Below are positions 4,585-43,908 of a DNA stretch of 64,000 nt, piece by piece. Position 1 is the first letter of the stretch. Each line of letters begins with the position of its first letter. The notes beneath the pieces are model-generated. The model searched no databases, was not told the DNA's origin, and worked only from the letters and a program-made list of their open reading frames with translations. The DNA lies in the IMG/VR virus record IMGVR_UViG_3300043932_000242; one strand, written 5' to 3'. A program made the position numbers and the translations under genes. The DNA comes from an uncultured virus (IMG/VR IMGVR_UViG_3300043932_000242). Lineage: Duplodnaviria > Heunggongvirae > Uroviricota > Caudoviricetes.

Positions 4585-4589
4585 CGCCG

Positions 4590-5778: not shown

Positions 5779-5833
5779 GTCTTGCTCCTTAGACTCTTAA
5801 GGCCCGCCCTGTGGCGCGCCTTGCGTCGCGTGA

Positions 5834-6452: not shown

Positions 6453-6614
6453 CCGGAAATAGTTCTTTGATTCCAATCGGAAGACATTCTCTGCCGCCCA
6501 CGCTCATATAAAGCCTGGGCATCGGCCGTCCCTCTGTTCCCGGTGCCGCGCCGTACCGCTGCGTTATAATGCTGAAAACGCATTTGTATTGCATTTCGAG
6601 GGATAGAGGCGCAG

Positions 6615-6827
6615 ATGCCTGACAGCTACAAGGAGCTCATCAAGGGCAACCCCGACGAGACCGAGATCAGAAGCTTCCTGGTGAACGGCGACCAGGTCTC
6701 CGTGACCCTGCGCATCCCCGACACCCTGCGTGACGCGGCCAAGGAGGAGGCATCTCTTCGGGGCATGAGCTTCTCCGCCTTCGTGCGCACCTGCATGATC
6801 GGAGAGCTCGCGAAGAAGGGAGCATAG
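6615..6827 (+). CDS. Ribbon-helix-helix regulator leading the defence operon
   Basis: VSVTLRIPDTLRDAAKEEASLRGMSFSAFVRTCM; TATAAT at 6565-6570 upstream. Confidence 0.8.
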   Translation: MPDSYKELIKGNPDETEIRSFLVNGDQVSVTLRIPDTLRDAAKEEASLRGMSFSAFVRTCMIGELAKKGA

Positions 6828-6831
6828 AGGC

Positions 6832-12950: not shown

Positions 12951-12953
12951 GTT

Positions 12954-14603
12954 TTAGGCCTCCTGTCCGCGTTCGTGTCGTGCTCGGATTCCGGCTCGGA
13001 TTGCTGCGGTGGTGCGTTCACGGAATTCCGGGTCTGCCCACAACTGCTTCATGCGTTCACTTTTTGTCTGCCGTACTTCTGGTCTGCGATGCGCTTGACT
13101 GGTGGCCTGGCGTCGTTGTGCTTCTTTCTCGGCGCTGCGCTCAGCGTTGAGACGCCGCATCAGTTCGCCGTGCTTTGCTCGCCGCTCTGGGGTCCAGCGT
13201 TCGGCGAGCTTCTGCGTTGTCTGCTCGCTCTTGACTCTGCCGCGGTTTCCTTGCCGGGCGATACGCTCTTCACGTTCTTCGGGTGTGAGCGAATCCCAGA
13301 AGGCGCGGAGCTTGCGTCCATGCTCGGCCCGGTATCCGGGTTGGTCCCAGTGAACTTTGCGTCGGGGCGGATAAATGATCGTGTGATTGGTGCTTGTTCC
13401 GTCCTTGAGGGTTACGGTTGCTTGCGTCACTGTGACGGCAATCTTGGCTACGTGTTCCTCCACCATGGCCGGGTCGTACTCATCCATCCCCAGCGCATCA
13501 CACAGCACGGTCTCAATGCTGGTCGTCGGGATCCTGCGTGAGGGGCATGGCCCTTCCTGTTCCCGCTTCGTTTTGCACACCCACCCGCGGGATCGTGAAC
13601 CGTCCTTGTAGCGCACAGTGCGTGACCGGTAGACCTGCCCGCAGTGTTCGCACCAGATCAAGCTGGTCAGCTCGCTAGTGGTAATCGACCAGTTCGCTTT
13701 CGCTCCCAGGCTTCGCCGCCTTGCGTGTTCTTCTTGGACGGCTTGCCACTTCTCGCGGCTGACAATGGGCGGGATTGCGTCTTCCACAAGGTACATGGGC
13801 TGCTGGCCAGTGTTGAGGATCGCGTGGGTAGATCTGGACGAGGGCGTGAACCATCGCCCGAGCAGCAGGTCACCTGTATAGGTGCGGTTGCGCAGAATGT
13901 GTCGGAGGGTCTGCGGGTTGAAGGACTCCCCGCTGCGGTTGGTTTTGTCTTGGGATGTCAGGATCTCGACCATCCGCTCGCACGAGACTTGTTGAAGGTA
14001 TTGATCGAATACCCAGCGGATGATCTCGGCTTCTTCCTCAATGATCTTCACATCACTGGCGTCAGCAGAGTTGGTGTACCCATACATGCGGAACCCGTTA
14101 GCTCGGCCTTCTTCGAACCGCTTCGTTACTGCCCATCGCACATTGGCTGACTGTTGTTCGGATTCAGCTTGAGCGAAGGAGGCAAGCAAGGTCAGTAGGA
14201 ATTCGCCGTCAGCACTGGCGGTGGAGATGCGCTCCTTCTCGAATCGCACTTCGACGCCAAGTGAGCGCAGCTCCCTGACTGCCTCAAGCAGATCGACGGT
14301 GTTGCGGGCGAACCGCGAGACGCTCTTGGTCAAGATCAGGTCGATCTTGCCGGCTCTTGCCTGGCTCATCATGTCTTGGAATCCGCTGCGGGTGCGGGTA
14401 GACCGCCCGGAGATTCCGTGGTCGGAAAACACGCCAGCAAACACCCACCCGGGGTGGCTAGCAATGAGGTCTTGGTAGTAGGCGATCTGAGCGGCGTAGG
14501 ACCCTTCACTGCGGTCGGTGATCATCGAAACGCGGGCATAGGCAGCTACCTGCACCATGCCGGATGGGCCAGGTTTCGCGGGGCTAGTTTGTATCGAAAC
14601 CAT
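12954..14603 (-). CDS. Large serine recombinase 2 with basic repetitive C-terminal extension
   Basis: VAAYARVS, DHGISG, TKSVSRFARN, CEHCG ribbon; tail with W..PE.R repeats. Confidence 0.9.
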   Translation of the reverse strand: MVSIQTSPAKPGPSGMVQVAAYARVSMITDRSEGSYAAQIAYYQDLIASHPGWVFAGVFSDHGISGRSTRTRSGFQDMMSQARAGKIDLILTKSVSRFARNTVDLLEAVRELRSLGVEVRFEKERISTASADGEFLLTLLASFAQAESEQQSANVRWAVTKRFEEGRANGFRMYGYTNSADASDVKIIEEEAEIIRWVFDQYLQQVSCERMVEILTSQDKTNRSGESFNPQTLRHILRNRTYTGDLLLGRWFTPSSRSTHAILNTGQQPMYLVEDAIPPIVSREKWQAVQEEHARRRSLGAKANWSITTSELTSLIWCEHCGQVYRSRTVRYKDGSRSRGWVCKTKREQEGPCPSRRIPTTSIETVLCDALGMDEYDPAMVEEHVAKIAVTVTQATVTLKDGTSTNHTIIYPPRRKVHWDQPGYRAEHGRKLRAFWDSLTPEEREERIARQGNRGRVKSEQTTQKLAERWTPERRAKHGELMRRLNAERSAEKEAQRRQATSQAHRRPEVRQTKSERMKQLWADPEFRERTTAAIRAGIRARHERGQEA

Positions 14604-14633
14604 CACAAGTCTCCTTCCTTTTCTTGGCACCTC

Positions 14634-14665
14634 CATACACGCTCTAGTGCGCTTCGATATCAAGT
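14634..14665 (-). promoter_or_regulatory. Putative promoter CTTGATA-N18-TGTAT upstream of recombinase 2
   Basis: Same architecture as the promoters at 34089-36766. Confidence 0.5.
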
Positions 14666-24941: not shown

Positions 24942-25544
24942 TTAGTTGCCAGAGCCTGCGGTCGTGGTGGTGTAGGCCGGCTCATACACGGTCTTGAACC
25001 AACCATCGGTGATAGTCTTTGCGGCCTCGCCTTCGGTGGTTTCCACCTTCCACGGATGCTTGCCTGAGGGGTCGGGCTTGGTGCGGCGCAGGATCGTGCC
25101 CTCGATCTCCGGGGTGGAAAACTCGATCGAATCGCCCTTGGTGGTAAGCGAGGCAGTAGGTACGGCGAAGCGGACCTTATAGAGCCAGAAATACCGGTAG
25201 GTGCCATTCGCCTTGCGGGCACGAAACCCGATCGCAACCGGCGCCCCACCATCCTCGGATGTGGAGACCAGCACCTTGTTCTTATCGATGATGGCGCCAA
25301 CCAGGTCGGCGGCAACCTCGGCACTGATGTCATCCACACCCAGGGTCAGGGTGCCGGACTTGAATTCTTTGACGACCTCTGCAGGTCCGTCATCGGCATA
25401 CAGTATCGCTTCGGCGACTTCGATGGACACCTCCGCGCTGATCGCCTTAGCCAGCTGCTTAGGCGTGCCGTAGGTTTCCTCACCAGTGGAGGGGTTTTCC
25501 GTGATGGTCGCGTAGTAGAGAGAGTCGAGTCCGATAGTTGCCAT
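24942..25544 (-). CDS. Major tail protein (phi13-like)
   Basis: MATIGLDSLYYA, LYADDG, VAIGFRARKANGTYRYFWLYK. Confidence 0.9.
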   Translation of the reverse strand: MATIGLDSLYYATITENPSTGEETYGTPKQLAKAISAEVSIEVAEAILYADDGPAEVVKEFKSGTLTLGVDDISAEVAADLVGAIIDKNKVLVSTSEDGGAPVAIGFRARKANGTYRYFWLYKVRFAVPTASLTTKGDSIEFSTPEIEGTILRRTKPDPSGKHPWKVETTEGEAAKTITDGWFKTVYEPAYTTTTAGSGN

Positions 25545-25562
25545 GATGGGGGTTTCCTTTCG

Positions 25563-25913
25563 TTAGAGCAGGTGGTGGGTTTGGGTGTCGATGGCGTAGT
25601 GGTGGTAGCTGGTCTCGTCCTCGAAGCCGATATAGGAACGGGACGTGATCGTGACACCAGCAGCCAGTAGCGCGGCGGTGAGCTGGTCGCGAAGGGTCAG
25701 GTAGTTGCCCCGCGCATACACGGACAGGCGTGCTTCTTCGATCTGGGCTCTTGGGGTGTTATCCCCGTATAGGGCCAGGGTGTCGACTAGTGGGGTGAGC
25801 ACCACGAACGCTTCCGGCAGTGGGGTTTTGGTAAACAGTCCCACCCGCACCGGCAAGTCGAGCTTCTCGCAGGTGGTGGTGAGGTGTTCCAGCAGTGGGA
25901 TGCTCTCGCTCAT
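25563..25913 (-). CDS. Tail terminator/completion protein
   Basis: YIGFEDETSYHHYAID; synteny. Confidence 0.7.
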   Translation of the reverse strand: MSESIPLLEHLTTTCEKLDLPVRVGLFTKTPLPEAFVVLTPLVDTLALYGDNTPRAQIEEARLSVYARGNYLTLRDQLTAALLAAGVTITSRSYIGFEDETSYHHYAIDTQTHHLL

Positions 25914-26335
25914 GTGCTGCCTTTCGTCAGGCGCTCGGCCAACACCCGTTTCATGGCCTCCAGGGCTGGGGCGCGGGTGGTGCGGCGGGTGCGGGTAAGA
26001 AACGGGCGGGCTACTTGGCGGGTGGAGCCGTATTCGAGAATGGTCGCGATCTTCGCGTTCGAGCCCCCGTCTTGGCGGGGCTCATCGAAGCCGACTTTCA
26101 CGTTATGGTTTCCCGCCCGATCCGTCTTCACCGGGGTAACCCCCAGGGCTGCGACAAGCTGGCCGGTGGAGTACCTACCGGTGATGGATGCTGTGAGGTT
26201 GGCTCGCATGACCGGCTCAACCACACTGCCGGCGGCTTTCAGCGCTGCTTCGGCATGCTCATCGAGGTGGGCTCCTGCCGCCGTGAGCTCATCGAGCACA
26301 GTGGTGGGGAGTTTCACGGTTGCCTTCGCCATCAC
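25910..26335 (-). CDS. HK97 gp10-like neck protein
   Basis: STGQL, ILEYGS, ARPFL. Confidence 0.8.
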   Translation of the reverse strand: MMAKATVKLPTTVLDELTAAGAHLDEHAEAALKAAGSVVEPVMRANLTASITGRYSTGQLVAALGVTPVKTDRAGNHNVKVGFDEPRQDGGSNAKIATILEYGSTRQVARPFLTRTRRTTRAPALEAMKRVLAERLTKGST

Positions 26336-26676
26336 CCGCCTCCCTTCTCTGGGTTGCCTTCTGGGGTGTGTTGGTGTGCTTCGATCACGGTGTAGCGGCC
26401 GATCTGTTCAACCGTGTCGATTACCCAGCGGCCATCGGCGGCGGCGATCACCATGGACTCATCCACGCGGATTGCGGGGTGGGTGCGGATGCGGAAGATC
26501 GCGGTGGCTTTCGTGTAGGCCGCACGGTTAACCCACGCTGAGCTGGCGTGGCGGTGTTCGACCTCTGCTCGCACTGTGGCCAGAACCTTCTCGGCCACGA
26601 TGTCGAACCCCGCACTATCCCTGGTGTGGATGGGGGCGATGATGTCGATGTGAGAGCGCATCTGGCCTAGACCCAT
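26332..26676 (-). CDS. Head closure/head-tail adaptor (SPP1 gp16-like)
   Basis: MGLGQMRSHIDI, RDSAGF, AIFRIR. Confidence 0.75.
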   Translation of the reverse strand: MGLGQMRSHIDIIAPIHTRDSAGFDIVAEKVLATVRAEVEHRHASSAWVNRAAYTKATAIFRIRTHPAIRVDESMVIAAADGRWVIDTVEQIGRYTVIEAHQHTPEGNPEKGGG

Positions 26677-26779
26677 CGGACACTACCTTTCCAAAAGTGA
26701 AGACGATTATGGGCAAGCCCGCGGGAGACTCATGCTGGGTGCATCCGAGCAGTAGAAATCAGCTCTAGAGCCAAGCCGC

Positions 26780-27913
26780 TAGAGCGGTTTGGAGGTGGTC
26801 GTTAGAGCTGAAAAAGTACTCTCAAGACCTCCATGTAGAGCGGTTTGGAGGTAGTCGTTAGAGCTAAAAAGGTCTCTATAGATCTCCATGTGGAGCGGTT
26901 GTGAGGTCCTCGTTAGAGCTAAAAGGTCTCACGGGAGATCTACCGAGAGCTGTTGTGAGGAGCTGACAGCAGTTGTTGGGTCCCTCCGGCTGGGCGTAAA
27001 CCCGCGGAGAACCCGTCACATAGCGCCCACAGGGGCCGTCAGAGGCGTCATAAGCCCTCTACTCCGCCTCAGCCGGACCCAAAAACCTCTCCTTTAGAGC
27101 GGTTTTGAGGTGGTCGTTAGATCTACGAAGCTCTCTCAAGATCTCCATGTAGAGCTGGTTTGAGGTCCTCGTTAGATCTGCAAAGCTCTCTATAGACCTC
27201 CATGTAGAGCGGTTTAGAGGTCCTCATTAGATCTGCAAAGGTCTCACGGGAGATATACCCAGAGCGGTTGTAAGGAGCTGACAGCAGTTGTTGGGTCCCT
27301 CCGGCTGGGCGTAAACCCGCGGACAACCCGTTATATAGCGCCCACAGGGGCCGTCAGAGGCGTTACAAGCTCGCTACAGCGCCTCACCCGGACCCAAAAC
27401 CAGTCCTTTAGAGCGGTTTTGAGGTGGTCGTTAGAGCGGGAAAAGTACTCTCAAGACCTCCATGTAGAGCGGTTTAGAGGTCCTCGTTAGAGCTACAAAG
27501 ATCTCTATAGACCTCCATGTAGAGCGGTTTAGAGGTCCTCATTAGATCTGCAAAGGGCTCACGGGAGAACTACCCAGAGCGGTTGTAAGGAGCTGACAGC
27601 AGTTGTTGGGTCCCTCCGGCTGGGCGTAAACCCGCGGAGAACCCGTCACATAGCGCCCACACAGGCTGCTGACGGCGCCACAAGCCCGCTATGTCGCCTC
27701 ACCCGGACCCAAAACCAGTCCTTTAGAGCGGTTTGGAGGTAGCCGTTAGAGCGGGAAAAGTACTCTCAAGATCTCCATGTAGAGCTGGTTTGAGGTCCTC
27801 GTTAGATCTGCAAAGCGCTCTATAGATCTCTATGTAGAGCGGTTTTGAGGTCCTCGTTAGAGCTGCAAAGCTCTCTATCGACCTGCGTGTAGAGCGGTTG
27901 TAAGGAGCTGACA
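26780..27913. repeat. Hierarchical non-coding repeat array: 3.6 x 315-bp units, each 3 x 55-bp repeats plus a partial repeat plus an IR-closed GC-rich module
   Basis: Super-units start at 26780, 27095, 27409, 27724; 55-mer consensus TAGAGCGGTTTDGAGGTCCTCGTTAGAKCTGCAAAGNTCTCTATAGAYCTCCATG. Confidence 0.95.
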
Positions 27914-27985
27914 AAGGGAAAATTGCTGTAATGACGAGCGCCGAGAGTGGCTTCCAGGAGATCATCTAGCTGGGGTGCCCTCCCG

Positions 27986-28303
27986 CTAGATTTTCCATTC
28001 CCGGTCCATCACCAACAACCGGTGGATCGCTTCCCAGGCTGCGCGGGCGGCGTCGGTTTTGTCTGCCCAAAATCCTCCGGTTGCTCCGTCGCGTGCCTCG
28101 TACAGGTGGGTTGCCAGCATGACCACGCCCTGGGTGGTGGCTGGGCTCATCGCGTGGGTGTTGTAGAAGCCATCCGGCAAGTGCTGGAAGGAAGCAGCGT
28201 AGGAGGTGGCGGCGTCCACCAAGTGTGCGATCAACTCATCATCCGTGTCGAAGTCGATCAGCAGATTCGTTTTCACCAGTGCGGTGAGTTCTGCTGTGGA
28301 CAT
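27986..28303 (-). CDS. Head-tail connector (gp6-like)
   Basis: LVKTNLLIDFDTDDELI...MLATHLYEARDG; AAGGAGGTG RBS. Confidence 0.85.
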   Translation of the reverse strand: MSTAELTALVKTNLLIDFDTDDELIAHLVDAATSYAASFQHLPDGFYNTHAMSPATTQGVVMLATHLYEARDGATGGFWADKTDAARAAWEAIHRLLVMDREWKI

Positions 28304-28331
28304 CCGCCACCTCCTTATCGCTTGCTGGGGT

Positions 28332-29561
28332 TTAGGCGCTGGCCTTCTGGGTGAGGACCTGCACGGCCTCGGGAACGATGAGCTTGCCGTCCAGGCGCTG
28401 GGAGGCCAGGAACCCCACCTGCCCCGTGGTAGCAAACAGCTCGTTGAGTCGCTTGAAGGAGCGGCCCACGCGGTCGGCAATCCAGTAATAAGACAGATCC
28501 CCGAAGGCGACGGTGCGGGCCCCGGCCTTGATCTCAGGCACAAAGGTCGAGGTATGCACAGGCCGGCCCAGGATCGTGTCCGGATCCCCTGCGGTCAGGG
28601 CCGGCTGCCACAGGTACTGGCCGGTGGTGTCCTTGAGCTTGCGCACGGTCTTGACGGTGGCGTCGTTCATCAGCCACACCGCGTTCTTGCGGTACGGGGC
28701 CCGCAGCCCATAGTGCAGGTCGATCAGCTCATCGGCGCTGATGTCGGTTGCCTTAGCCGTGGTGACGCTGGACTGCGCACCAGAGGTGGCGTGGAAGACA
28801 CCGGTGGGCTTACCCGACCCATCCCCGTTGATGAAGGCTTCCTCTTCGGCGGCACCCATGCGGCGAGCAAACTCGGAGGCGAGATATGCCTCGATGTCGA
28901 AGGCCGAGTCGTTGAGGAGCTCTTCGGAGACCTTGAGGAAGGTGCCGAGCTTGAACGCGGAGAGGGTCACCTGGTTGAAGGTGTCATCGGACTCGGTATA
29001 CGGCTTGCCCTCATCCAGCCACGCCGCGCTGCCGTGGGTGGCGACTACCGGGATCTTGCGGTCCCCGCTGGTGGTGGTGATGACCTTGGCCAGGGTGCGC
29101 ATGATGTTCTGATCTTGCAGGGTGTCGACCAGGGTGCGTTCGAACTCCTCGGGCACAAGGTAGCCACCCTCCGTGTCCGTGCCGACGGACAGGGCGTTTC
29201 GCACCTCTGCCGGTGAGGCGTTCAGGCGCATCGCATCCCAAAACGCCCGCTTGTAGGTGGCAGAAGCACGACCCGCCGGTTCGTCCTCGTCGGTGTGGAA
29301 GACGGCGGTGTTCATGCCGGGCCGGGCGGTCAGCGGTGGGCGGGTTGCGCGGGCGAGCTGGTTTTCGAGTGCTTCGGCGCGCTCGTTGCGGGCGATCTCC
29401 CGGGTGAGGTCCTCAATCTCTGCCTCCATACGGGCATAAGTCTGGTCGTCCTCAGCGGTGAGGCATCCGGTCTCAGCATCGCGGCGCTCATCGAGGAATG
29501 CCTTCGCGGCCTCCCAGGCCTTGGCGCGGCGGGCGTAGAGGTCAGTGGTGGTCATGGTCAT
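28332..29561 (-). CDS. Major capsid protein, HK97 family
   Basis: GGYLVPEEF, VSEELLNDS, FINGDGSGKPTG, DTILGRPV, QRLDGK. Confidence 0.95.
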   Translation of the reverse strand: MTMTTTDLYARRAKAWEAAKAFLDERRDAETGCLTAEDDQTYARMEAEIEDLTREIARNERAEALENQLARATRPPLTARPGMNTAVFHTDEDEPAGRASATYKRAFWDAMRLNASPAEVRNALSVGTDTEGGYLVPEEFERTLVDTLQDQNIMRTLAKVITTTSGDRKIPVVATHGSAAWLDEGKPYTESDDTFNQVTLSAFKLGTFLKVSEELLNDSAFDIEAYLASEFARRMGAAEEEAFINGDGSGKPTGVFHATSGAQSSVTTAKATDISADELIDLHYGLRAPYRKNAVWLMNDATVKTVRKLKDTTGQYLWQPALTAGDPDTILGRPVHTSTFVPEIKAGARTVAFGDLSYYWIADRVGRSFKRLNELFATTGQVGFLASQRLDGKLIVPEAVQVLTQKASA

Positions 29562-29582
29562 GATCAGTGTTCCTTTCACGAT

Positions 29583-30359
29583 CTAGTGGGGTTGGTTGGC
29601 CAGGGCGGCGTACAGGTCAGCAATCCGCCGACCCAACCGAACAGACGGGGTGGGTTGGTGGTGGTTGATCTTGTTCACCAACGTGGCGGTGGTTGCCGCA
29701 GCGCTAAAGGTGAACCCCGCACCCAGGTTGTCGGGTACGGGGTCAAGGGCAGCAGGCTCGGCGGGGCCGGGTGGCGTGAACGCTTGCGTGGGTTCGCTGG
29801 GTTGGTAGAGGCCGTCAGCGAAACCCATGGCGATGGCGGCTTTCGCGTCCATCCAGGTTTCCTCATCCATCAGCCGGGCAAGCTTGGCACGTTGTATGCC
29901 GGTGCGCAGCTCGTAAGCGTTGATGATGGATTCCTTAACTGCTCCCAGCATCTCCACCGCGCGGGACAGCTCGGCGGCGTCTCCGGTGGCTAGGGTGGCG
30001 GGGTTGTGGATCATCATCATGCCCACCGGGGAGATCAACACCTCGGTGCCGGCCATCGCAATCACCGAGGCAGCACTTGCGGCTAGGGCGTCGATGATCA
30101 CGGTGACCGGATACGGGTAGTCCATGAGCATCGTGTAGATCTCGGCTGCCGCCACGCAATCCCCACCCGGGGAGTTGATCCACACCTGGATGGGGCCTGC
30201 TCCTGCTTCCAGCTCGGAGCGAAAAATGCCGGGGGTGACGTCGTCATCGAACCAGGAGTCTGCTGCGATGACGCCGCCGATACGCAAAACCCGGTGGGCA
30301 TCATGCTCACCGGGCGGGTCTGGGGGTTGCTCCCAGTTCCAGAAACGGTTAGCCGTCAT
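29583..30359 (-). CDS. ClpP-type head maturation protease
   Basis: WINSPGGD, AASAASVIAMAG, MMIHNP, MDEETWM. Confidence 0.92.
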   Translation of the reverse strand: MTANRFWNWEQPPDPPGEHDAHRVLRIGGVIAADSWFDDDVTPGIFRSELEAGAGPIQVWINSPGGDCVAAAEIYTMLMDYPYPVTVIIDALAASAASVIAMAGTEVLISPVGMMMIHNPATLATGDAAELSRAVEMLGAVKESIINAYELRTGIQRAKLARLMDEETWMDAKAAIAMGFADGLYQPSEPTQAFTPPGPAEPAALDPVPDNLGAGFTFSAAATTATLVNKINHHQPTPSVRLGRRIADLYAALANQPH

Positions 30360-31656
30360 GGCCTGCCTCCTCTCTGGCGGTTGTTCTGGGTTGGGTCATG
30401 GGGTCCTCCTCGGGTGTCGTTGGGTTGGGTGTCTGGGTGGTGGCATACGCCCCGGCTAGGGACAGGGGCAGCATGTTGCCGTTGACCAGGTACAAGTCCC
30501 CGCCATCCTCGGGTGCGATGCGGTCGAGGTTTTCGAGCTCCCGGATGTCGTTGGCGCTCATCCACCCGTTCTGCCGCGCTACCGCATAGCCCTGCATACG
30601 GGACGCGTAGTCACCGCGCAGCAAACCCTCGAGGTTGAACTTCACGAACACGCCAGTATCGCGAGGATCCAGCAGGGTCTTAGTGAGGGCTTGCTCCCAG
30701 CGGATCACCCACGGATCCAGGGTGTATTTGACGAACTCGAGGGACTGCTGCTCGATGTTCGAGAAGCTGGACTTGTCGAGATCGCCGATCATGTGCGGCG
30801 GAATGCGGAAGATCCGGGCGATCTCACCCATCTGGAACTTCCGGGTCTGCAGAAACTGCGCCTGCTCAGGGGAAACCGAGATGGGCGTGTACTTCATGCC
30901 CTCCTCTAACACCGCGATCTTGTTGCCGTTGCGTGCTCCACCGAACGTGGCAGTCCAGGATTCCCGCACACGGCTCGGGTCTTTGATCGTGCCTGGGTGT
31001 TCGAGTACCCCGCCGGGTGCGGCACCGTTGGCGAAGAAGGATGCTCCGTAGTCTTCGCAGGCTTGGGCCATGCCGATCGCGTTTTTCGCCATCGCAATCG
31101 GGGAATACCCAACGAGGCCGTCAAACCCCAACCCCGGAATATGCAACACCTCAGAGGGTGGGAGTACGACGCGCTCATACTGAGCGGCCGGTGGCTCCTC
31201 GCTGGTGCGCTGATACTCGTAATACAGCCGGCCCGCACTATCCCGGCCCACCTGCATGCGGTTAGGCATCAGCGGGTAGAGGCCGATGACTTCGCCGCGG
31301 CCGTTGCGGATCACCTGCGCGTAGGCGTTACCCCAGAGCAGCAGGTGCGTCATCAACGTTTCCCGGAACACGAAGCTTGTCATCTCCGGGTTCGGCTCGT
31401 CGTGCAACAGGCGGTAGAGCGGATGGCTAACCGCCTTCTCCTTCCCGCCATCCGTGCGGGTTTGGTAGACGTGCAACGGTAGGCCGGCGATGGCCTCAGC
31501 CAGAATCCGCACACAGGAGTAGACGGCGGTCATCTGCATGGCGGTACGCTCATTGACCGCACGGCCAGCCGATGTGGGGCCGAACAGGAACGAGTAGCCA
31601 GACGAGAGCTGCGTGTTGGTCGGGGCACGTCGGGTAAACCAGTCTTTAATTGACAT
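30349..31656 (-). CDS. Portal protein, HK97 family
   Basis: AVYSCVRILAE, LLLWGNAY, GLVGYSP, FSNIEQQ. Confidence 0.95.
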   Translation of the reverse strand: MSIKDWFTRRAPTNTQLSSGYSFLFGPTSAGRAVNERTAMQMTAVYSCVRILAEAIAGLPLHVYQTRTDGGKEKAVSHPLYRLLHDEPNPEMTSFVFRETLMTHLLLWGNAYAQVIRNGRGEVIGLYPLMPNRMQVGRDSAGRLYYEYQRTSEEPPAAQYERVVLPPSEVLHIPGLGFDGLVGYSPIAMAKNAIGMAQACEDYGASFFANGAAPGGVLEHPGTIKDPSRVRESWTATFGGARNGNKIAVLEEGMKYTPISVSPEQAQFLQTRKFQMGEIARIFRIPPHMIGDLDKSSFSNIEQQSLEFVKYTLDPWVIRWEQALTKTLLDPRDTGVFVKFNLEGLLRGDYASRMQGYAVARQNGWMSANDIRELENLDRIAPEDGGDLYLVNGNMLPLSLAGAYATTQTPNPTTPEEDPMTQPRTTAREEAGHDG

Positions 31657-31701
31657 ATCGACACCTTTTCGGCGAAAACAGAAACTATAAGAGGGAACGC
31701 G

Positions 31702-32082
31702 ATGAAGGTTGAACACCGACGTGAGGATGGTGAACTTCTCGGCTGGATTGACATCCACGAGGACGGCTCATGCACAGCGATCGACTTGCTCGGACGAGTG
31801 AGCGCTGCTGGTGATTGGGACGAGTGCGAAAACCAGCTCGAGGCCCAAGGCTTATCCTATCTGGCAGATCTTTATGCCCTGGAAGTCACACCGGGACTCT
31901 GGGTACGGGTCCTCATCGTTGAAGTCAACTCCACCCGGGTCCGAGTGAAGGAAGATGACTTCGGAGACGCCACCATCTCCACTCCCATCCACGACGTGCC
32001 GATTCCGGTGGACAATCGCCTCGTTCCATACGCCCTGGCACCCGGTGAGGTTCACAGCACGAGCAAACCTCGCTCGTCGTAG
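31702..32082 (+). CDS. Antisense-oriented hypothetical protein (moron) between terminase and portal
   Basis: 126-aa ORF with GAGGG RBS; overlaps the terminase 3' end by 31 bp. Confidence 0.7.
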   Translation: MKVEHRREDGELLGWIDIHEDGSCTAIDLLGRVSAAGDWDECENQLEAQGLSYLADLYALEVTPGLWVRVLIVEVNSTRVRVKEDDFGDATISTPIHDVPIPVDNRLVPYALAPGEVHSTSKPRSS

Positions 32083-33662
32083 ACCGAGTGCGCGGGCGCG
32101 GCGTTGCTGTTACGAATGGCCCGGTCTAGAGCCATGATGAGGGCGACGACGCCGTCGATTTTCTCGGTGGACTTTTGCTTGTCGGGTTTGATGTTGCCGG
32201 CAGGGTCGGTGCGGATGTGAATGTTGTCGACCATCCACGCGAGCACCTTGTTCCCACCATGCTGGATCCGTCCTTCCAGGGCGAGCTTCATCAGCTCCTT
32301 CGACGGTGGGCTCATGTCTTTGAAGCCTTGCCCGAAGGGAACCACGGTGAAGCCCAGGGCCTCCAAGTTCTGCGACATTTGCACCGCGCCCCAACGGTCG
32401 TAGGCGATCTCCCGAATGTCGTAGCGGGTACCGAGTTCCTCGATGAACGCTTCTATGGCGGCGTAGTGGACGACATTGCCCTCAGTGGTGTGCAACAGGC
32501 CTTCGCGCTCCCACTGGTCGTAGGGCACATGGTCACGGTTCACCCTAAGCTCGATGTTGTCCTCAGGGATCCAGAAATGCGGCACCACCACATACGGCTC
32601 GGTCTCATCCCGGGGTGGGAACACCAACACCAGCGCGGTGATGTCGGTCGTGGATGCCAGGTCCAGGCCGGCGTAACACACCCGCCCCTCCAAGGAGGAG
32701 AGGTCGATAGGAGCGTTGCCTTTGTCCCACAGGTGCATCGGCATCCACCGAATCGACTGCTTCACCCACTGGTTGAGGCGCAGCTGGCGGAAGGCGTTTT
32801 CTTCGGCGGGGTTGATGCGGGCCGAGTGGGCAGCCGCCCGCACCTTGTCGATGGGGACGGTGATGTCCAGGCTTGGGTTGGCTTTACGCCACACGTCTTC
32901 GTCCAGCCAGTCATCCTCGGGCTCGGCCCCGTAGATCACCGGGTAGAACGTGGGATCATTCTTTTTGCCGTCGAGGATGTCGCGGGCTTTTTGGTGCTGC
33001 TCGAAGCACACCGAGGCGGTATTCGTCCCTGCCGTGGTGATCAGGAAGTACAGCGGCTGGGTGCGGGCATCACCGGAGCCTTTGGTCATGACGTCGAACA
33101 GGGCCCGGTTGGGTTGGGTGTGCAGCTCATCGAAGACGACCCCGGAGATGTTGAATCCGTGCTTGGAGTAGGCCTCAGCGGAAAGCACCTGGTAGAAGGA
33201 GTTGGTTGGGGTGTAGACGATGCGCTTCTGGCTTGCCAGGATTTTCACCCTTCTTGCCAGCGGTGGGCAAAGCCGCACCATGTCGGCAGCAACCTCGAAG
33301 ACGATGCTCGCTTGCTGGCGGTCTGCCGCACACCCATACACCTCGGCACGCTCCTCACCATCCGCGCAGGTCAGCAGCAGGGCGATTGTGGCAGCGAGCT
33401 CGCTTTTGCCCTGCTTCTTGGGGATTTCCACATACGCGGTAGTGAACTGGCGGTACCCGTCGGGCTTGATGGTGCCGAACAGGTCGCGCACGATCCTCTC
33501 CTGCCAGCCCAGCAGCTCAAAAGGCTTGCCTGCCCAGCGGCCCTTGGTGTGTTTGAGGGCTTGGATGAAGGCGACCGCGTAGTCGGCTTTGCGCTTGTCG
33601 TAGTGGGAGCCCTCATCCATGAACCGGGTCGGTGTGTAAGCGTCCGTGCTGGTGCTGGTCAT
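32052..33662 (-). CDS. terL: Terminase large subunit
   Basis: IPKKQGKSEL, VFDELH, ITTAG, GLDLAST, KIDGVVA. Confidence 0.95.
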   Translation of the reverse strand: MTSTSTDAYTPTRFMDEGSHYDKRKADYAVAFIQALKHTKGRWAGKPFELLGWQERIVRDLFGTIKPDGYRQFTTAYVEIPKKQGKSELAATIALLLTCADGEERAEVYGCAADRQQASIVFEVAADMVRLCPPLARRVKILASQKRIVYTPTNSFYQVLSAEAYSKHGFNISGVVFDELHTQPNRALFDVMTKGSGDARTQPLYFLITTAGTNTASVCFEQHQKARDILDGKKNDPTFYPVIYGAEPEDDWLDEDVWRKANPSLDITVPIDKVRAAAHSARINPAEENAFRQLRLNQWVKQSIRWMPMHLWDKGNAPIDLSSLEGRVCYAGLDLASTTDITALVLVFPPRDETEPYVVVPHFWIPEDNIELRVNRDHVPYDQWEREGLLHTTEGNVVHYAAIEAFIEELGTRYDIREIAYDRWGAVQMSQNLEALGFTVVPFGQGFKDMSPPSKELMKLALEGRIQHGGNKVLAWMVDNIHIRTDPAGNIKPDKQKSTEKIDGVVALIMALDRAIRNSNAAPAHSVYDERGLLVL

Positions 33663-35386: not shown

Positions 35387-35686
35387 TTAGTGGGCGAGGA
35401 TCATGCCCATCGCCCAGGCCCCGGCCTCAGCCTGGCTGGTGAAATCCTCGTGGTCCTCAGTCGAGCTGATCGCCAGGTGAATCGGGGCCGTCTCGCCGCG
35501 CTCGGCGGTGGTGTAGCGGTAGCAGAAAGCCTGGTAGCTCATGGCCTCTGTGTCGTAGTTCCAGGCCCAGCGGGTGGCGATGATCCACTCACCGACCGGC
35601 ATCATGTTGCCCTGGAAGCGGGTGGCCTTCTTCAGGGCCTTCTCGGTGGCCGGGCGGGTCATCTCGGTAAGCATCTCGGTGTTCAT
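35387..35686 (-). CDS. Small hypothetical protein, cassette 4
   Basis: AAGGAAG RBS; preceded by conserved block. Confidence 0.65.
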   Translation of the reverse strand: MNTEMLTEMTRPATEKALKKATRFQGNMMPVGEWIIATRWAWNYDTEAMSYQAFCYRYTTAERGETAPIHLAISSTEDHEDFTSQAEAGAWAMGMILAH

Positions 35687-35723
35687 CGTGGGGCTTCCTT
35701 CCTGGTTGGCTGGTGTTTTCTTG

Positions 35724-35806
35724 CATGTACATACAGCCATACCCCCGCCCACATATCCAGTCGTTTTGCCTGGTATTCCGGGGAAAAATAGAGATGCTCA
35801 TCTCTG
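35724..35806 (-). promoter_or_regulatory. Cassette promoter/operator block, copy 4
   Basis: CTGGATA-N18-TGTATGTACATG; AGAGATGCTCATCTCT at 35790-35805. Confidence 0.75.
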
Positions 35807-35812
35807 CGCGTG

Positions 35813-36703
35813 TCAGCCCAGCACCGTGTAGTGGTCCACTTCGGGGATGAGCCCCAGGCTGGTGCCGTCATCCCAGGCGACGTGGATCGTGCCCAGGGAG
35901 TCGACCACGATGACTTCGCCTTCCATCCCAGCTCGCAGCCCTGCCTCCGTGTCACTGTCACCCAGCAGCCGGATCCGGCAGCCCGGACGAACACCCAGGC
36001 CCGCCTGCACTGCAGGGGTCTTCGGGGCTGGTGGGGTGCGCCAGGCCCCGTTGCCCGAAAGGTGTCGGGTGAGTATCCGGCGGGTGGTCTTGTGCTCATC
36101 CCCGGTCAAGCCCAGGCGGTTCAGGAAGGTGCGCATGGCGTAGCGGTCATTGTCATCTTGCGGGGCACGCCCCCGCACCCGCCGCGCAGCCCGGGCCATG
36201 GCGACAAGGGCGGTGATGAAGTCCTGGCACGCGGCAGCCACTTCTGGGTCCGGGAGGGTGGTGAACCAGGCGAAGCGTGCCACCAAGCCCGCATCCTCAT
36301 GCCGGATGTATTCCACGCCGGCAGGTTTTGGTAGCCCAATGGCTCTGGCGATCAGTGGCCCGTAAGCACGCATCAGGGCTGAAAGGTTGTCCCGGCCCCG
36401 TTCACCAAGGCTTGCGGCTGGCACCATGATCACCAACCCCACCTCCTCAGCCTCACCAGCCGAGGGCTGGGGCTCGTCGTCAGAGGCGGTGATGGTGATG
36501 CCCGCACTGGTGATCACCTGGCGGAGCTGCTCGGTAAGCTCGGGGCCTTCAAGGCGCGCATCACGGGTGAGCAGGTACTGGCCGATCTGGTAGGCCATGC
36601 TCGGTGCCTTCAAATAGCGAGCCTCAGTCCCGGTGGCCTGGGCGATGAGCTTGGCGACCTCTGCGCGGCGGATGCTGGCGGGCAGGGTGAGCGTGTAATC
36701 CAT
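35813..36703 (-). CDS. Phage protein with C-terminal DUF4314-like domain, cassette 5
   Basis: YLKAPSMAY, NDRYAMRTFLNRLG...LSGNGAWR, VDSLGTIHVAWDDGTSLGLIPEVD. Confidence 0.75.
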   Translation of the reverse strand: MDYTLTLPASIRRAEVAKLIAQATGTEARYLKAPSMAYQIGQYLLTRDARLEGPELTEQLRQVITSAGITITASDDEPQPSAGEAEEVGLVIMVPAASLGERGRDNLSALMRAYGPLIARAIGLPKPAGVEYIRHEDAGLVARFAWFTTLPDPEVAAACQDFITALVAMARAARRVRGRAPQDDNDRYAMRTFLNRLGLTGDEHKTTRRILTRHLSGNGAWRTPPAPKTPAVQAGLGVRPGCRIRLLGDSDTEAGLRAGMEGEVIVVDSLGTIHVAWDDGTSLGLIPEVDHYTVLG

Positions 36704-36730
36704 GGTGTCCTCCAATGTGTGGGTTGTCGT

Positions 36731-36806
36731 GTCTATACACGCTCACCTTTGCCCTACATATCAAGCACAAACCCGCCCCAGATCAACAGAGAGATGATGA
36801 TCTCTA
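36731..36806 (-). promoter_or_regulatory. Diverged cassette promoter/operator block, copy 5
   Basis: CTTGATA-N19-TGTAT; AGAGATGATGATCTCT at 36790-36805. Confidence 0.65.
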
Positions 36807-38039
36807 GGATGCTTGCTCAACCTGTTTGACCAGCTCCAGGAAACTGCCACGCTCACATGACACCCCGGCGGCATCCCCGGTGTGTTCCACGTAGCGGCGA
36901 AGGATCACCGAGGCGTACTTGGGGTCGAGCTCCATGCAGTACGCGACCCGGTCGGTCTGCTCGGCGGCGATCAAGGTGGAGCCAGATCCTGCGAACGGGT
37001 CGAGCACGAGGGCGTTTGGCTGGGTGGAGTTGCCCATCGGGTAGGCCATCAGATCTACTGGCTTGCTCGTGGGGTGGTTCTTGGAGCGTTTGGGCTTGGC
37101 GAACTGCCAGATGGTGGTCTGCTTGCGATCTGCGTACCAGGCGTGTTTGCCGCCGTTCTTCCACCCAAACAGGCAGGGTTCGTGCTGCCACTGGTACGGG
37201 CTTCTGCCTAGGACCAGGGAGTCTTTGACCCAGATGCAGCAGCCTGAGAGCTTGAAGCCCGCATCGATGAAGGCTCGGCGAAACGCCAGCCCCTCGGTGT
37301 CCGCGTGGAACACGTAGGCCGACGCGCCCGGTGCCATCACTGCGGCTGCGGCGGTGAAGGAGTCGAGGAGGAACTGGTAGAAGGCGTCTGCGTCCATCTT
37401 GTCGTTCTTGATCGACAAGCCCTTCGAGCTTTGGAAATCGACGTTGTAGGGCGGGTCTGTGAGCAGCAGGTTCGCGGACTTGCCTCCCATGAGGGCTTCG
37501 AGATTGTGGGGCTTGGTGGCGTCTGCGCACATGAGCCGGTGCCGACCCACAGTCCACACATCCCCAGGCTCGACGAAAGCAGCCTGTTCGAGTGCTGCGT
37601 CGAGGTCAAACCCATCGTCGTGCGCCTGGCCCTCATCTAGGGAGCCGATCATGGCCTGGATCTCTGCCTCATCAAACCCGGTGAGTTCGGCGTTGAAATA
37701 GCTGGCGTCCAGGTCGGCGATCAGCAGGGCGAGCTTGGACTCATCCCAGTCGCCGCTGATCTTGTTCAGCGCAATGTTGAGGGCTTTTTCTCGGGTCTCG
37801 TCGAGTTCGACCACCACGCAATCCACCTGCTCGAAACCAAGGTCTGCGAGGACCTTGAGTCGCTGGTGGCCGCCTACGATGTGGCCGGTGGTCTTGTTCC
37901 AGATCACCGGCTCCACATACCCGAACTCGGCAAGCGACCGCTTGAGCTTTTCGTACTCGGCGTCTCCGGGTTTCAGGTCTTTGCGGGGGTTGTAGTCGGC
38001 GGGAGTGAGCTCAGAAAGAGTAAGCCGGCGCATATCCAC
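36804..38039 (-). CDS. ParB-like N-terminal domain plus N6/N4 DNA methyltransferase
   Basis: PADYNPRKDL, VGGHQRLK; TDPPYN, HPTSKP, LDPFAGSGST. Confidence 0.92.
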   Translation of the reverse strand: MDMRRLTLSELTPADYNPRKDLKPGDAEYEKLKRSLAEFGYVEPVIWNKTTGHIVGGHQRLKVLADLGFEQVDCVVVELDETREKALNIALNKISGDWDESKLALLIADLDASYFNAELTGFDEAEIQAMIGSLDEGQAHDDGFDLDAALEQAAFVEPGDVWTVGRHRLMCADATKPHNLEALMGGKSANLLLTDPPYNVDFQSSKGLSIKNDKMDADAFYQFLLDSFTAAAAVMAPGASAYVFHADTEGLAFRRAFIDAGFKLSGCCIWVKDSLVLGRSPYQWQHEPCLFGWKNGGKHAWYADRKQTTIWQFAKPKRSKNHPTSKPVDLMAYPMGNSTQPNALVLDPFAGSGSTLIAAEQTDRVAYCMELDPKYASVILRRYVEHTGDAAGVSCERGSFLELVKQVEQAS

Positions 38040-39195
38040 GGGTCTTGACCTCCTCCTTGAGCTTGTATCCGTAGGAGTACGGGGAGTTCCACCACGAGGA
38101 GGTGGTGAAGTGTCCGTAGGTGGAGTGCTCAGCAAACAACGGTTGGCGAAGCCGAAGCTGCTCGATGATCGCTTCAGGCCGCAGGTCAAACACCGCCCGC
38201 ACCGCCTGGGCGATCACCTCATCGGGCACCCGGCCCGTGTCGCGCGTATCCACCGTGACCGCCACCGGGTCAGCCTTACCGATCGCGTAGCTGATCCCCA
38301 CGACGGCCTCGTCGGCCAGCCGGGCATCGATAATGGCCAAGGCGATCAGGCGCGCCATGTAGGCGGCCGAGCGGTCAACCTTGGTGGCGTCCTTCCCGCT
38401 AAAGGCCCCACCACCATGGGGTGCCAGGCCGCCGTAGGTGTCGACTGCGAGCTTGCGGCCACTCAGCCCCGTGTCTGCCGCGGGGCCACCCAGGGTGAAA
38501 GGCCCGGCCGGGTTGACCAACACGAGAGTGTCCTCATCGATGTGCAGGTCGTGGCGGGCTAGGGCTGGGGCGATGACCTGGGTGCGTACCGTGCGGCGCA
38601 GCTCATCCAGGCTGGTGTCCTTGGTGTGTTGGATGGAGACCACCACCGCCTCCACACCCACGGCCTGCCCGTCCTCATAGCGAAGCGAAACCTGTGCCTT
38701 TCCGTCGCAGCCGATACCCCGGATGGTGCCCTCAGTGCGGGCCTTGTCCAGGCGGCGGCAGATGTCGTGGGCGAGCACTAGCGGCAGCGGGAGACGCTGG
38801 CTGGTCTCACGCGTGGCGTAGCCGTAGACGGTTCCCTGATCACCGGCACCCAAGCTCACGTAGGCGGACTCCTCACCGTCGCGTGCCTCCAGAGAGGTGT
38901 TCACGCCTGCGGCGATATCCGGGGACTGGGAATGTGTATGTACATTCACCCGCCACCCAAAGGGTGCGTAGCCTGCACGGATCAGGGCGCGGCGCACACT
39001 CTCACGTACATGGACCCGGGCACTAGAGGTGATTTCACCGGCAACAATGATGCGGCCCTTGGTGGCCATCACCTCTACCGCGCAGCGCGCGCTGGGGTCT
39101 TCGAAGAGGAGGTCGTCGAGGATGGTGTCGGCGATCAAATCGCACAGCTTGTCGGGGTGGCCAACACAGGTTGACTCACAGGTACGGATATCCAT
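38011..39195 (-). CDS. metK: S-adenosylmethionine synthetase
   Basis: GHPDKLCD, GAGDQG, DGKAQV, GGGAFSGKDATKVDRSAAY. Confidence 0.95.
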   Translation of the reverse strand: MDIRTCESTCVGHPDKLCDLIADTILDDLLFEDPSARCAVEVMATKGRIIVAGEITSSARVHVRESVRRALIRAGYAPFGWRVNVHTHSQSPDIAAGVNTSLEARDGEESAYVSLGAGDQGTVYGYATRETSQRLPLPLVLAHDICRRLDKARTEGTIRGIGCDGKAQVSLRYEDGQAVGVEAVVVSIQHTKDTSLDELRRTVRTQVIAPALARHDLHIDEDTLVLVNPAGPFTLGGPAADTGLSGRKLAVDTYGGLAPHGGGAFSGKDATKVDRSAAYMARLIALAIIDARLADEAVVGISYAIGKADPVAVTVDTRDTGRVPDEVIAQAVRAVFDLRPEAIIEQLRLRQPLFAEHSTYGHFTTSSWWNSPYSYGYKLKEEVKTRGYAPAYSF

Positions 39196-39861: not shown

Positions 39862-39884
39862 GGATTTTCGCCTCCTTTCCGCGG

Positions 39885-39990
39885 GGCTCGGTCAATCGGG
39901 GGTTTGATTCGTGCTTTTTGTGCGCGGCACCCCAGACCCGCTCCCTCAGGGGCCTCGGGCTAGAGATTTCACGCCCCCTAGGGGGCCTGT
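39885..39990. other. Putative cos/packaging signal region
   Basis: Non-coding stretch just upstream of terS, downstream of HNH; palindrome gccccctagggggc at about 39973-39986; function inferred from position. Confidence 0.4.
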
Positions 39991-40179
39991 GTGCCCCGCT
40001 GTGGGGCGAACTCGCGGTTTTCGACTCAAACCGCCATCGTTGGGGTGAGGCCCTCAGTGGGGCTTACAGCGTCACTGAGGCTGTGGAGAAGTGCTTGCAT
40101 CACCAGCAGGGGGCGGCAAGTTATCCACAGAAACGTTGAGGTGGTTGCGCCCGCCTCGGCGGCGCGGGATCGTGGAAAC

Positions 40180-40494
40180 ATGATCGAACTACGCGACGAT
40201 TACCGACTCGTCTACCCCAACGTCCAAGACAACGCTGACGCCCGCTGGGTCCTGCAATGGTGCGGAGGTCTTGTCCCTGGCTGCCACCTGGTCCTCGAGT
40301 ACGAGCTGGAGAACCCACCCGATGAGTACCTCACTGGCGGCTACGTCGGTGTCGAGGTGGTCTCCTGCCAGGGCGACCAGTTCGTCGGGCAAGCCCACTG
40401 GGCGGCCGACGACATCTCCTGCCTGCCCGATGGATTCATCGAGTCCAACCTGAACTACATCGCGCGGGTTGATCCTCCCTACCCGCTCGCGTAG
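40180..40494 (+). CDS. Antisense-oriented acidic hypothetical protein
   Basis: MIELRDDY... 104 aa, convergent with HNH; GC3-rich codons. Confidence 0.6.
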   Translation: MIELRDDYRLVYPNVQDNADARWVLQWCGGLVPGCHLVLEYELENPPDEYLTGGYVGVEVVSCQGDQFVGQAHWAADDISCLPDGFIESNLNYIARVDPPYPLA

Positions 40495-40504
40495 GGCCCG
40501 CACC

Positions 40505-42863: not shown

Positions 42864-43122
42864 GGCGCACCTCCTGGATGCCCTCTGGCCCATCCACGAC
42901 CAGGGCCGTGAAGCCTTGCTCGCGCAGTTGTCTCATCCGGCGATGTTGTAGTGGCCTTGGTTTCTTGCCGGGGGCTTTGACTTCAACGAAGACTGCTCGT
43001 CCAGCTTTCAGGCAGATGCGGTCTGGGACTCCGTCCACTCCGGGGCAGGTCAGTTTCCAGCAGATTCCTCCGTCGGCCTGGATGGCTTGGCGGAGTGCTT
43101 GTTCGATGGTTTTTTCGTTCAT
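42844..43122 (-). CDS. VRR-NUC domain nuclease
   Basis: EKTIE, GVPDRI, FVEVKAPG, RPLQ. Confidence 0.9.
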   Translation of the reverse strand: MNEKTIEQALRQAIQADGGICWKLTCPGVDGVPDRICLKAGRAVFVEVKAPGKKPRPLQHRRMRQLREQGFTALVVDGPEGIQEVRRALSAA

Positions 43123-43146
43123 TGGGGGTTGCTCCACTTTGGTGGC

Positions 43147-43241
43147 GTGCACCCCGTGCTAGTCATTTCCCAACCTATATATAGAGAAGTAAAAATCAAC
43201 ATCCCTATGTGGGGTATAGGACAGAGATACACGAGGTACAC
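43147..43241. other. Putative phage replication origin
   Basis: AT-rich core (cctatatatagagaagtaaaaatc) flanked by imperfect inverted repeats gtgcaccccgtgc / acacgaggtacac, downstream of primase. Confidence 0.45.
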
Positions 43242-43265
43242 AAACGGCTATTTACCAGGGATTTC

Positions 43266-43895: not shown

Positions 43896-43908
43896 GGTCC
43901 TTTCTGCT

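Follow-up and report, generated by a model that had tools for sequence, protein, structure and literature searches.

How does a 1.3-kb stretch that encodes no conserved protein come to lie between two normally adjacent virion genes? The question is raised by a 64,000-nucleotide piece of DNA from an uncultured tailed virus of the class Caudoviricetes (IMG/VR record IMGVR_UViG_3300043932_000242), the whole of which we refer to as “the window”. The window contains an integrated HK97-like prophage (~11.4 to 52.7 kb), and positions 26780–27913, within the late operon of that prophage, hold a nested tandem array of 3.5 blocks of 315, 314, and 315 bp. A first-pass annotation, made from the letters alone, had described the array as helically phased and non-coding, and had offered several possible functions. 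We favor a different reading, to which we give about an even chance: the array would be a lineage-specific, non-coding, higher-order minisatellite, i.e., a locus with a variable number of tandem repeats (VNTR), carried in a cargo slot of the late operon. Here, we describe the array, its insertion site, its variation between samples, and the alternatives.

The three-level nesting claimed initially is real. Tandem Repeats Finder (TRF) reports a period of 315 bp at 26780–27875 (3.5 copies, 88% matches, 1% indels, score 1666), together with four embedded period-55 arrays of 2.7–3.2 copies each. Blocks start at 26780, 27095, 27409, and 27724. A full block comprises three units of 54–56 bp followed by a GC-rich segment of ~150 bp that closes with a 21-nt partial unit, while the fourth block ends after three units and a partial unit. 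The four 21-nt partial units start at 26946, 27261, 27576, and 27891. The blocks are laid out as follows:

26780..27094 (315 bp): super-repeat S1, with units 26780–26835, 26836–26890, and 26891–26944, and GC-rich segment 26945–27094
27095..27408 (314 bp): super-repeat S2, with units 27095–27149, 27150–27204, and 27205–27259, and GC-rich segment 27260–27408
27409..27723 (315 bp): super-repeat S3, with units 27409–27464, 27465–27519, and 27520–27574, and GC-rich segment 27575–27723
27724..27913: partial super-repeat S4, with units 27724–27779, 27780–27834, and 27835–27889, and a partial unit from 27890, where the repeat ends

Every unit runs in the same direction. Each block contains three unit subtypes in the same order, meaning that the triplication of the 55-bp unit is older than the duplication of the 315-bp block. 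A profile of the unit, searched against the window, recovers 12 full units (E 1.6e-14 to 5.6e-19) and no further copy at E<1. Similarly, the 30-nt head of the unit, allowing up to 3 mismatches, has 11 matches in the window, all of them within the array, and none in 100 shuffles. The blocks are 87–90% identical to one another, with 4–6 gap columns per 27–36 mismatches between block pairs, so the length of the array is not specially conserved.

At the finest level, AGNNC(C/T/G) hexamers occupy unit positions 2, 14, 25, 35, and 45, which gives exactly the spacing first described (12/11/10/10/12). Hexamer density is 59 per kb in the array versus 16 per kb in the window. The self-identity of the sequence is 0.38 at a lag of 10, 0.40 at a lag of 45, and 0.62 at a lag of 55, where the mean over lags is 0.25 (sd 0.055), which makes for only a weak ~10-bp sub-period. 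At 10.5 bp per helical turn, a 315-bp block corresponds to 30.0 turns, whereas the 55-bp unit corresponds to 5.24 turns and the three-unit block to 15.7. The proposed helical phasing thus holds for the 315-bp period and fails at the two smaller levels. A companion claim, that copies diverge at the NN positions but keep their spacing, is half right: changes do concentrate in the centers of the AG..CT boxes, but the spacing is not special, with indels as common as expected. Strict helical phasing and conservation of spacing are not beyond chance, and with indels at their expected frequency and 315 bp the sole level with integral turns, the suggested selection on geometry finds no support.

The array lies within an insertion whose borders are defined by two late genes:

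27986..28303, minus strand: head-tail adaptor Ad1, 105 aa, upstream neighbor of the insertion
26677..27985, minus strand: insertion, 1309 bp, from the Ad1 stop codon to the Hc1 start codon
26332..26676, minus strand: head closure Hc1, 114 aa, downstream neighbor of the insertion

We gathered 160 loci around relatives of the major capsid protein (MCP) from genomes and IMG/VR, of which 115 have a recognizable Ad1 and Hc1; excluding one locus from the same phage (L093) leaves 114 for the comparison of spacing. The Ad1–Hc1 gap is ≤32 bp in 107 of the 114 relatives and 51–173 bp in the other seven, with none larger, which bears out the initial description of the two genes as normally adjacent. In relatives with 90–93% nucleotide identity in the flanking genes, the TAG of Ad1 is followed by 12–16 nt, including a ribosome-binding site (RBS), and then by the ATG of Hc1. 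Homology of these relatives to the window stops exactly at 27986 and 26676. One relative, G662, is ~91% identical to the window over 15241–51795 but is without the array; another, G663, has a window-type primase region at 90% identity, and the array is again absent. GC content is 0.542 for the whole insertion, 0.485 for the units, and 0.62 for the GC-rich segments, compared with 0.625 for the rest of the prophage. Neither terminal inverted repeats nor a target duplication are visible by eye at the insertion borders. To judge from these alignments, the array is an insertion of a foreign, lower-GC segment.

A search for a gene that accompanies the array found no candidate. The segments specific to the window relative to G662 and G664 are the array, 40070–40504, 43088–43978, and everything from 51796 onward, and none of them encodes a recognizable DNA-binding or partition gene that could co-occur with the array. 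TRF analysis of the 160 related loci (1.75 Mb) found no non-coding array with a period of at least 30 bp other than this one. The other repeats with periods in that range are 132-bp coding tandem repeats in the tape-measure genes of about 30 of the 160 loci (among L015–L133, near 11–13 kb), with 1.8–3.3 copies and 71–80% matches.

Late-operon junctions in this group do accept cargo elsewhere. The two nearest relatives, G662 and L013 (a metagenome-assembled genome labeled Propionibacteriaceae, MCP 97%), carry a 1.2-kb reverse-strand cassette at the Hc1/tail-completion junction, encoding an ArsR-family regulator (HTH_5, 1.3e-11) and a cation-efflux protein (5.1e-13). This cassette is metal-resistance-type cargo within the late operon, one junction downstream of the one occupied by the array. 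The Hc1/tail-completion junction exceeds 200 bp in 6 of 112 relatives. By analogy, the site of the array is probably a cargo (“moron”) slot of the late operon. As to positions, the cassette lies at 7935–9140 of locus L094, with the same arrangement in L013, and gaps at this junction measure 663–682 bp in L134, L135, and L139 and 205 bp in L095.

The number of blocks differs between samples. IMG/VR provirus record G001 has the same array sequence and copy number as the window, as does an IMG/VR metagenome viral contig that is identical over 7072 bp. In a sludge run (X1), all 30 bins are covered and the listed pieces show no differences. By contrast with these, a contig from a food-production run (X7; 190 nt, depth 2.1) joins 27132 directly to 27763, with loss of 630 bp, i.e., two blocks; it is identical to 27763–27928, preceded by 24 letters unique to 27109–27132, and its junction fuses two units of the same subtype. 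A bird-metagenome run (X8) contains a relative whose flanks are 3.2% and 4.2% divergent, and its contigs of 24 kb and 30 kb enter the array from both sides. Here, a hybrid unit joins 27762 to 27133, and the 24-kb contig skips one block (315 bp). An RNA-library run (X24) contains an array-less relative, with a 1342-bp skip and a 38-nt spacer. Where X7, X8, and X24 leave parts of the array uncovered, it does not follow that those parts are absent, and contig depths, which were summed over pieces that fit in several places, are not usable for copy number. Together, the junctions show that array copy number varies in 315-bp steps between samples.

Could the repeat simply have been mis-assembled or mis-counted? 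The sources are short-read assemblies or unitig-like contigs, and no listed contig spans the whole array. However, sequence and copy number agree between the window, G001, and the metagenome contig; copies differ by 10–18%, so short reads can be placed; X1 covers every bin without differences; and, in X8, long contigs from a diverged relative reach into the array on either side. We regard an assembly artifact as scarcely credible.

Head-to-tail non-coding units of 10–100+ bp, with a copy number that differs between samples, are what is expected of a minisatellite, and the array has both. A plausible history runs as follows: (i) a foreign, lower-GC segment was inserted exactly into the 12–16-nt spacer between the Ad1 stop and Hc1 start codons, as the comparison with relatives shows; (ii) the segment may have grown by stepwise in-register duplication, in which AG..CT boxes 10–12 bp apart gave rise to the 55-bp unit; (iii) the unit would then have tripled into three subtypes, after which three units and the ~150-bp GC-rich segment were copied as a 315-bp block, 3.5 times; (iv) blocks are still being gained and lost through unequal homologous recombination between units of the same subtype, as the X7 and X8 junctions illustrate. 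Once in place, the array is probably carried passively within the late transcript, and no sequence-specific function would be needed. Hc1 retains its own RBS, so virion assembly presumably tolerates the array; any effect on downstream expression would be a by-product.

The insertion extends beyond the array on both sides, as unique flanks:

27914..27985, minus strand: promoter-proximal unique flank, with an RBS-like GGGAGGG and the ATG of a non-conserved 80-aa open reading frame (ORF)
26677..26779, minus strand: promoter-distal unique flank, with the palindrome GCTCTAGAGC and the Hc1 ribosome-binding site

The 80-aa ORF (27723–27965) starts in the promoter-proximal flank, extends into the repeats, and is not conserved. 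In the other flank, just beyond the last unit, the perfect 10-bp palindrome GCTCTAGAGC at 26762–26771 consists of two TAGAGC half-sites of the array and belongs to a weak terminator-like hairpin on the sense strand. ORFs within the gap are only 47–80 aa long, with a GC content at third codon positions (GC3) of 0.51–0.60, versus 0.74–0.83 in neighboring genes. We rejected a coding reading because these ORFs differ between copies and have low GC3. An array of clustered regularly interspaced short palindromic repeats (CRISPR) was likewise rejected, since whole 55-bp units repeat with no unique spacers, and no cas family is found among the Pfam and PHROGs hits of the window. On both counts, the first-pass annotation was correct.

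Array pieces from X8 are 6.8–10.9% different from whichever window copy fits them best. In MCP, Ad1, and Hc1, the divergence between the window and L094 at third codon positions is 2.16 times the overall rate; applied to the flank divergence of X8, this factor predicts ~7–9% at unconstrained sites, the level seen in the array. Most of the array would thus appear to drift near the silent-site rate, i.e., near-neutrally, although the X8 rate estimate is confounded, with units possibly aligned to non-orthologous copies.

That confounding is one of several points that count against a passive minisatellite. Another is the GC-rich segment, where 51 consecutive columns are identical in all three copies, with 30 of 150 columns variable (permutation P=2e-5):

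26958..27008: 51-nt invariant block, hand-converted from alignment columns 87–137, with other copies ~315 and ~630 bp further

The half of the segment adjoining this block differs heavily between copies, and indels listed for X8 also fall in the variable half. Constraint, or else a gene-conversion tract common to the copies, would account for the 51-nt identity. In the units, the AG and CT ends of the boxes at 25, 35, and 45 never change, while their centers take up to six dinucleotides. Also weighing on this side, the folds of both strands are more stable than those of shuffled sequences (z −2.79 and −2.51, with none of 100 shuffles reaching the same stability), for which the palindromic boxes alone could be the source. 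Lastly, compact phages do not usually carry 1.3 kb of untranslated DNA within an essential late operon, yet here it persists in a ~4%-diverged relative and in runs labeled with several habitats.

Base-by-base statistics for the units are less pronounced. The 47 within-subtype changes over 56 columns have a variance/mean ratio of 1.35 (P=0.04), and 27 columns are invariant versus 24 expected (P=0.13). Hot columns are the fourth base of boxes 25 and 45, both central bases of box 35, and the 4-nt spacer between boxes. These patterns hint weakly at constraint on the AG..CT boxes.

What would such constraint serve? One possibility is a protein-binding DNA platform: AGANCT/TAGA-type boxes spaced 10 bp apart, three to a unit and all facing the same side of the helix, would attract many copies of a small DNA-binding protein, from phage or host, which could organize DNA or titrate a regulator. 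Ribbon-helix-helix proteins read short tandem boxes, and Arc reads TAGA boxes; ParR, omega, and Arc-type ribbon-helix-helix proteins act on iteron or centromere arrays. Consistent with such a platform, most of the 12 units have their boxes at 25, 35, and 45 spaced by exactly 10 bp, with invariant outer AG/CT and hypervariable centers; box density is more than three times that of the window; the same half-site forms a perfect palindrome close beside the array; and the 51-nt block is invariant. Nevertheless, units are out of helical register with each other, at 5.24 turns apiece; box-constraint statistics are weak; and relatives that are ~91% identical, with nearly the same genes, lack the array. 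A partner is also hard to name. Pfam and PHROGs searches of the prophage found no ParA, ParB, ParM, ParR, ribbon-helix-helix protein, or other candidate; the single partition-like match is a ParB_N domain fused to a DNA methylase (2e-5, below the Pfam cut-off). Furthermore, neither a second array copy nor a single box cluster lies elsewhere in the 64-kb window, where hexamers beyond the array are as dense as expected by chance, and two serine recombinases and host flanks mark the phage as integrated. Overall, a protein-binding platform is unlikely.

The same observations count against more specific versions of this idea. A centromere of the sopC, parC, or parS type was rejected because there is no cognate partition operon and the element is not extrachromosomal (two serine recombinases at 11376–14663, host-type flanks); the centromere-like platform proposed by the first-pass annotation therefore has neither a partition nor a ribbon-helix-helix partner. 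The sponge or decoy that it proposed as a second option is not supported either, given the chance density of hexamers outside the array and the lack of anything similar in the genomes searched. An iteron origin was rejected on position, the array being at 26.8–27.9 kb and the replication module at ~41.5–51.4 kb, and because G663 has the primase region without the array. A cos or pac site was dropped, since the HNH endonuclease and small terminase genes lie 12 kb off.

Alternatively, the array might act as RNA, in the late transcript of the prophage or in an antisense transcript: as a pseudo-ToxI-style decoy, as an array of small-RNA genes, or as a structured spacer that makes head-gene mRNA more stable and dampens the expression of Hc1 and of genes for the tail. 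Its position within an operon means that it is presumably transcribed; the extra fold stability of both strands, and the terminator-like hairpin after the last unit on the sense strand, are compatible with a structured RNA, as is an RNA-library contig from X24 (see below) with 80 array-like nucleotides in a different context. Specific tests were negative. An Rfam 15 scan of 25500–29000 on both strands (E<=1) gave no match in the array, its single match in that region being sub-threshold, snoRNA-like, and outside the array, and ARAGORN found no tRNA or tmRNA genes. A promoter and terminator scan returned no promoter-like sites, no per-unit terminator, and 3 terminator-like sites versus 1.9 expected.

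Covariation was no more favorable to an RNA. RNAalifold on the three full blocks gave covariation terms that are penalties (+2.35 and +4.12), with compensated pairs numbering 2 of 94 and 1 of 100. The first-pass annotation had predicted that each unit pairs GAGGTC with GACCTC around an AGA.CT-N4-AG.TCT hairpin. In a test of this hairpin across the 12 units, 77% of cells pair on the minus strand, with none of 12 pairs compensated and 498 of 500 shuffles pairing at least as well; on the plus strand, 79% of cells pair, with 1 of 12 compensated and 496 of 500 shuffles pairing at least as well. At the center of the inner stem, the pair fails to form in 11 of 12 units (minus) and 9 of 12 (plus), while 4 of 12 units keep one plus-strand stem position through a G-U wobble, a point in favor of RNA structure. 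Units are self-complementary because the AG..CT boxes are palindromic. The predicted hairpin gains no compensatory support on either strand, in covariation tests that are low-powered (3 blocks, 12 paralogous units). The adjoining genes, Ad1 and Hc1, are not toxin genes, and host-lineage genomes that were searched contain no similar repeat for an RNA of the pseudo-ToxI or RNA anti-CRISPR type to mimic. In sum, an RNA element is rather unlikely. In looser versions, the platform, the decoy, and the RNA array of the first-pass annotation each keep some, if low, probability. An array of type III antitoxin RNAs, which would precede a terminator and a ToxN-, CptN-, or TenpN-type toxin gene, was rejected for its neighbors (Ad1 and Hc1) and because Pfam scans of the window found no toxin family. 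Two further candidates were dropped by eye: an integron attC site, with just one of two core boxes on a strand, and a CsrA-type GGA sponge, whose regulator is not expected in the lineage.

In the boldest reading, the array would be a working cis-element unlike any described so far. Its one-face AG..CT/TAGA boxes and the invariant 51-nt module would build up a repeated platform of nucleoprotein, or of RNA and protein, midway through the virion-assembly operon. Such a platform might sequester a host regulator or defense factor, or set the ratio of head to tail expression, with copy number tuned in 315-bp steps. We consider this improbable.

Is the array a copy of something found elsewhere? BLASTN searches with the array against INPHARED phages and PLSDB plasmids gave no match. 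Four pattern scans of IMG/VR found the same phage only, plus single chance matches, and two scans of metagenome contigs gave 0 matches and then 10 chance matches. A profile search of 178 other loci (1.84 Mb) found no relative of the array. Genome searches, in which the tool recovered the array in G001 as a positive control, gave no match in 3 genomes with related prophages, 401 order-level genomes, or 401 phylum-level genomes, and only three chance-level matches of 26–38 nt in 401 family-level genomes (E 1e-3 to 6e-3 per genome). The two flanks unique to the insertion likewise had no homologue in the searches. A literature search found no described system with the layout of the array; together with the sequence searches, this agrees with the initial statement that none was known. 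As far as sequence comparison reaches, the array is an orphan, with no homologue in any collection searched.

One sequence stands apart. Run X24 contains a 385-nt contig of which 80 nt resemble 27744–27823 (two units, 5 differences) and the remainder is unlike the window; its 30-letter loose end has no match in the sequences searched. The unit family may exist in another context, in a library that may contain DNA.

This contig bears on a fourth alternative, namely, that the array is a copy or remnant of a mosaic mobile repeat from the host, resembling BOX elements, bacterial interspersed mosaic elements (BIMEs), or miniature inverted-repeat transposable elements (MITEs) with an internal minisatellite, dispersed elsewhere in the host chromosome. 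A mobile origin would suit the modular build (GC-rich module, partial unit, tandem units), the lower GC, the precise intergenic insertion, and the array-like 80 nt in a different context in X24. MITEs carrying minisatellites have been described (PMC4596501). On the other hand, the window, which includes ~22 kb of host flank, has no other copy; the genomes searched at three taxonomic levels have none beyond the three short chance matches; and the borders show no visible terminal inverted repeats or target duplication. A host mobile repeat is, in our view, very unlikely.

The genes around the array form an HK97-type late operon, all on the minus strand, with the following upstream of Ad1:

32052–33662, minus strand: large terminase
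30349–31758, minus strand: portal
29583–30359, minus strand: protease
28332–29579, minus strand: major capsid protein

Downstream of Hc1 are genes for tail completion, tail terminator, major tail protein, and tape measure, also on the minus strand. Elsewhere, the prophage encodes two large serine recombinases, an amidase, a holin, an HNH endonuclease, and a small terminase; an Enc34-type replication module at ~41.5–51.4 kb with a family-A polymerase and a D5-type primase; and a S-adenosylmethionine (SAM) synthetase and a methylase with a weak ParB_N domain. IMG/VR classes record G001, which carries the array, as a provirus.

Several features of the window lie outside the late operon. The adjacent large serine recombinases (11376–12950 and 12954–14663), at the prophage end, are ~70% identical to the same region of relatives that are ~91% identical elsewhere, which indicates that the integration module has been exchanged. 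At 35387–39195, a cluster of genes for an Nmad4-domain protein, an amidoligase-like/DUF4314 protein, the N6_N4 methylase with the weak ParB_N domain, and the SAM synthetase suggests nucleotide or DNA modification. A 643-bp stretch without a convincing gene, 39862–40504, lies between the HNH endonuclease and small terminase genes and is likely the cos region; its part 40070–40504 has no counterpart in G662 or G664. The host flanks (53135–63840 and 1554–10077) resemble a defense island, with ABC-3C components (CTD6, MC2, AAA_23), two HsdM genes, and one HsdR gene on the right, and a NERD-domain protein and a 1081-aa SNF2/helicase protein on the left.

The late operons of tailed phages are among the most compact and syntenic DNA known. 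The survival of a 1.3-kb untranslated three-level repeat in one of them shows that head-tail connector junctions can serve as cargo slots that tolerate insertions, and that phages can give rise to, and turn over, higher-order repeats of the satellite type. Should a function emerge for the invariant block or for the box pattern, the array would represent a cis-element of a kind new to phages. Otherwise, it is a natural example of late-operon tolerance for neutral DNA, and a VNTR marker for tracking a prophage lineage across habitats.

How does the array compare with known repeats? Well-known centromere and iteron arrays include F sopC (43 bp x 12), the 11-bp iterons of R1 parC, and the iterons of P1 and SPP1. 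The array shares with them tandem direct repeats of tens of base pairs and short symmetric boxes about one helical turn apart. It differs in having no partition or initiator gene near or far, in belonging to an integrated phage, in its late-operon site far from the replication module, and in its absence from near-identical relatives. BIMEs, clusters of repetitive extragenic palindromes (REP), and pneumococcal BOX elements are mosaic intergenic repeats within operons, dispersed in many copies per genome. They resemble the array in their modular build, their short and partly palindromic units between genes of one operon, and a possible effect on mRNA stability, whereas the array is a single locus without other copies in the sequence searched, and all its units are direct. 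Type III toxin-antitoxin RNA arrays (ToxI) and the “pseudo-ToxI” expansions of phages (PMC5449768) are tandem non-coding repeats that can expand and contract by recombination. The array is alike in being a tandem non-coding phage repeat that changes in number by recombination, but its 55-nt units come in threes with a 150-nt module, it has no toxin gene, and no host array was found for it to mimic. The closest likeness is to bacterial minisatellites and VNTR loci, which share its head-to-tail non-coding units, its whole-block steps in copy number by in-register recombination, and its near-neutral divergence, and to higher-order satellite repeats, in which subtype-specific monomers are nested in a larger repeating block. 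From the minisatellites, the array is set apart by its three-level nesting with an unrelated 150-bp module and by its site in a virion-assembly operon, both of which are unusual for prokaryotes.

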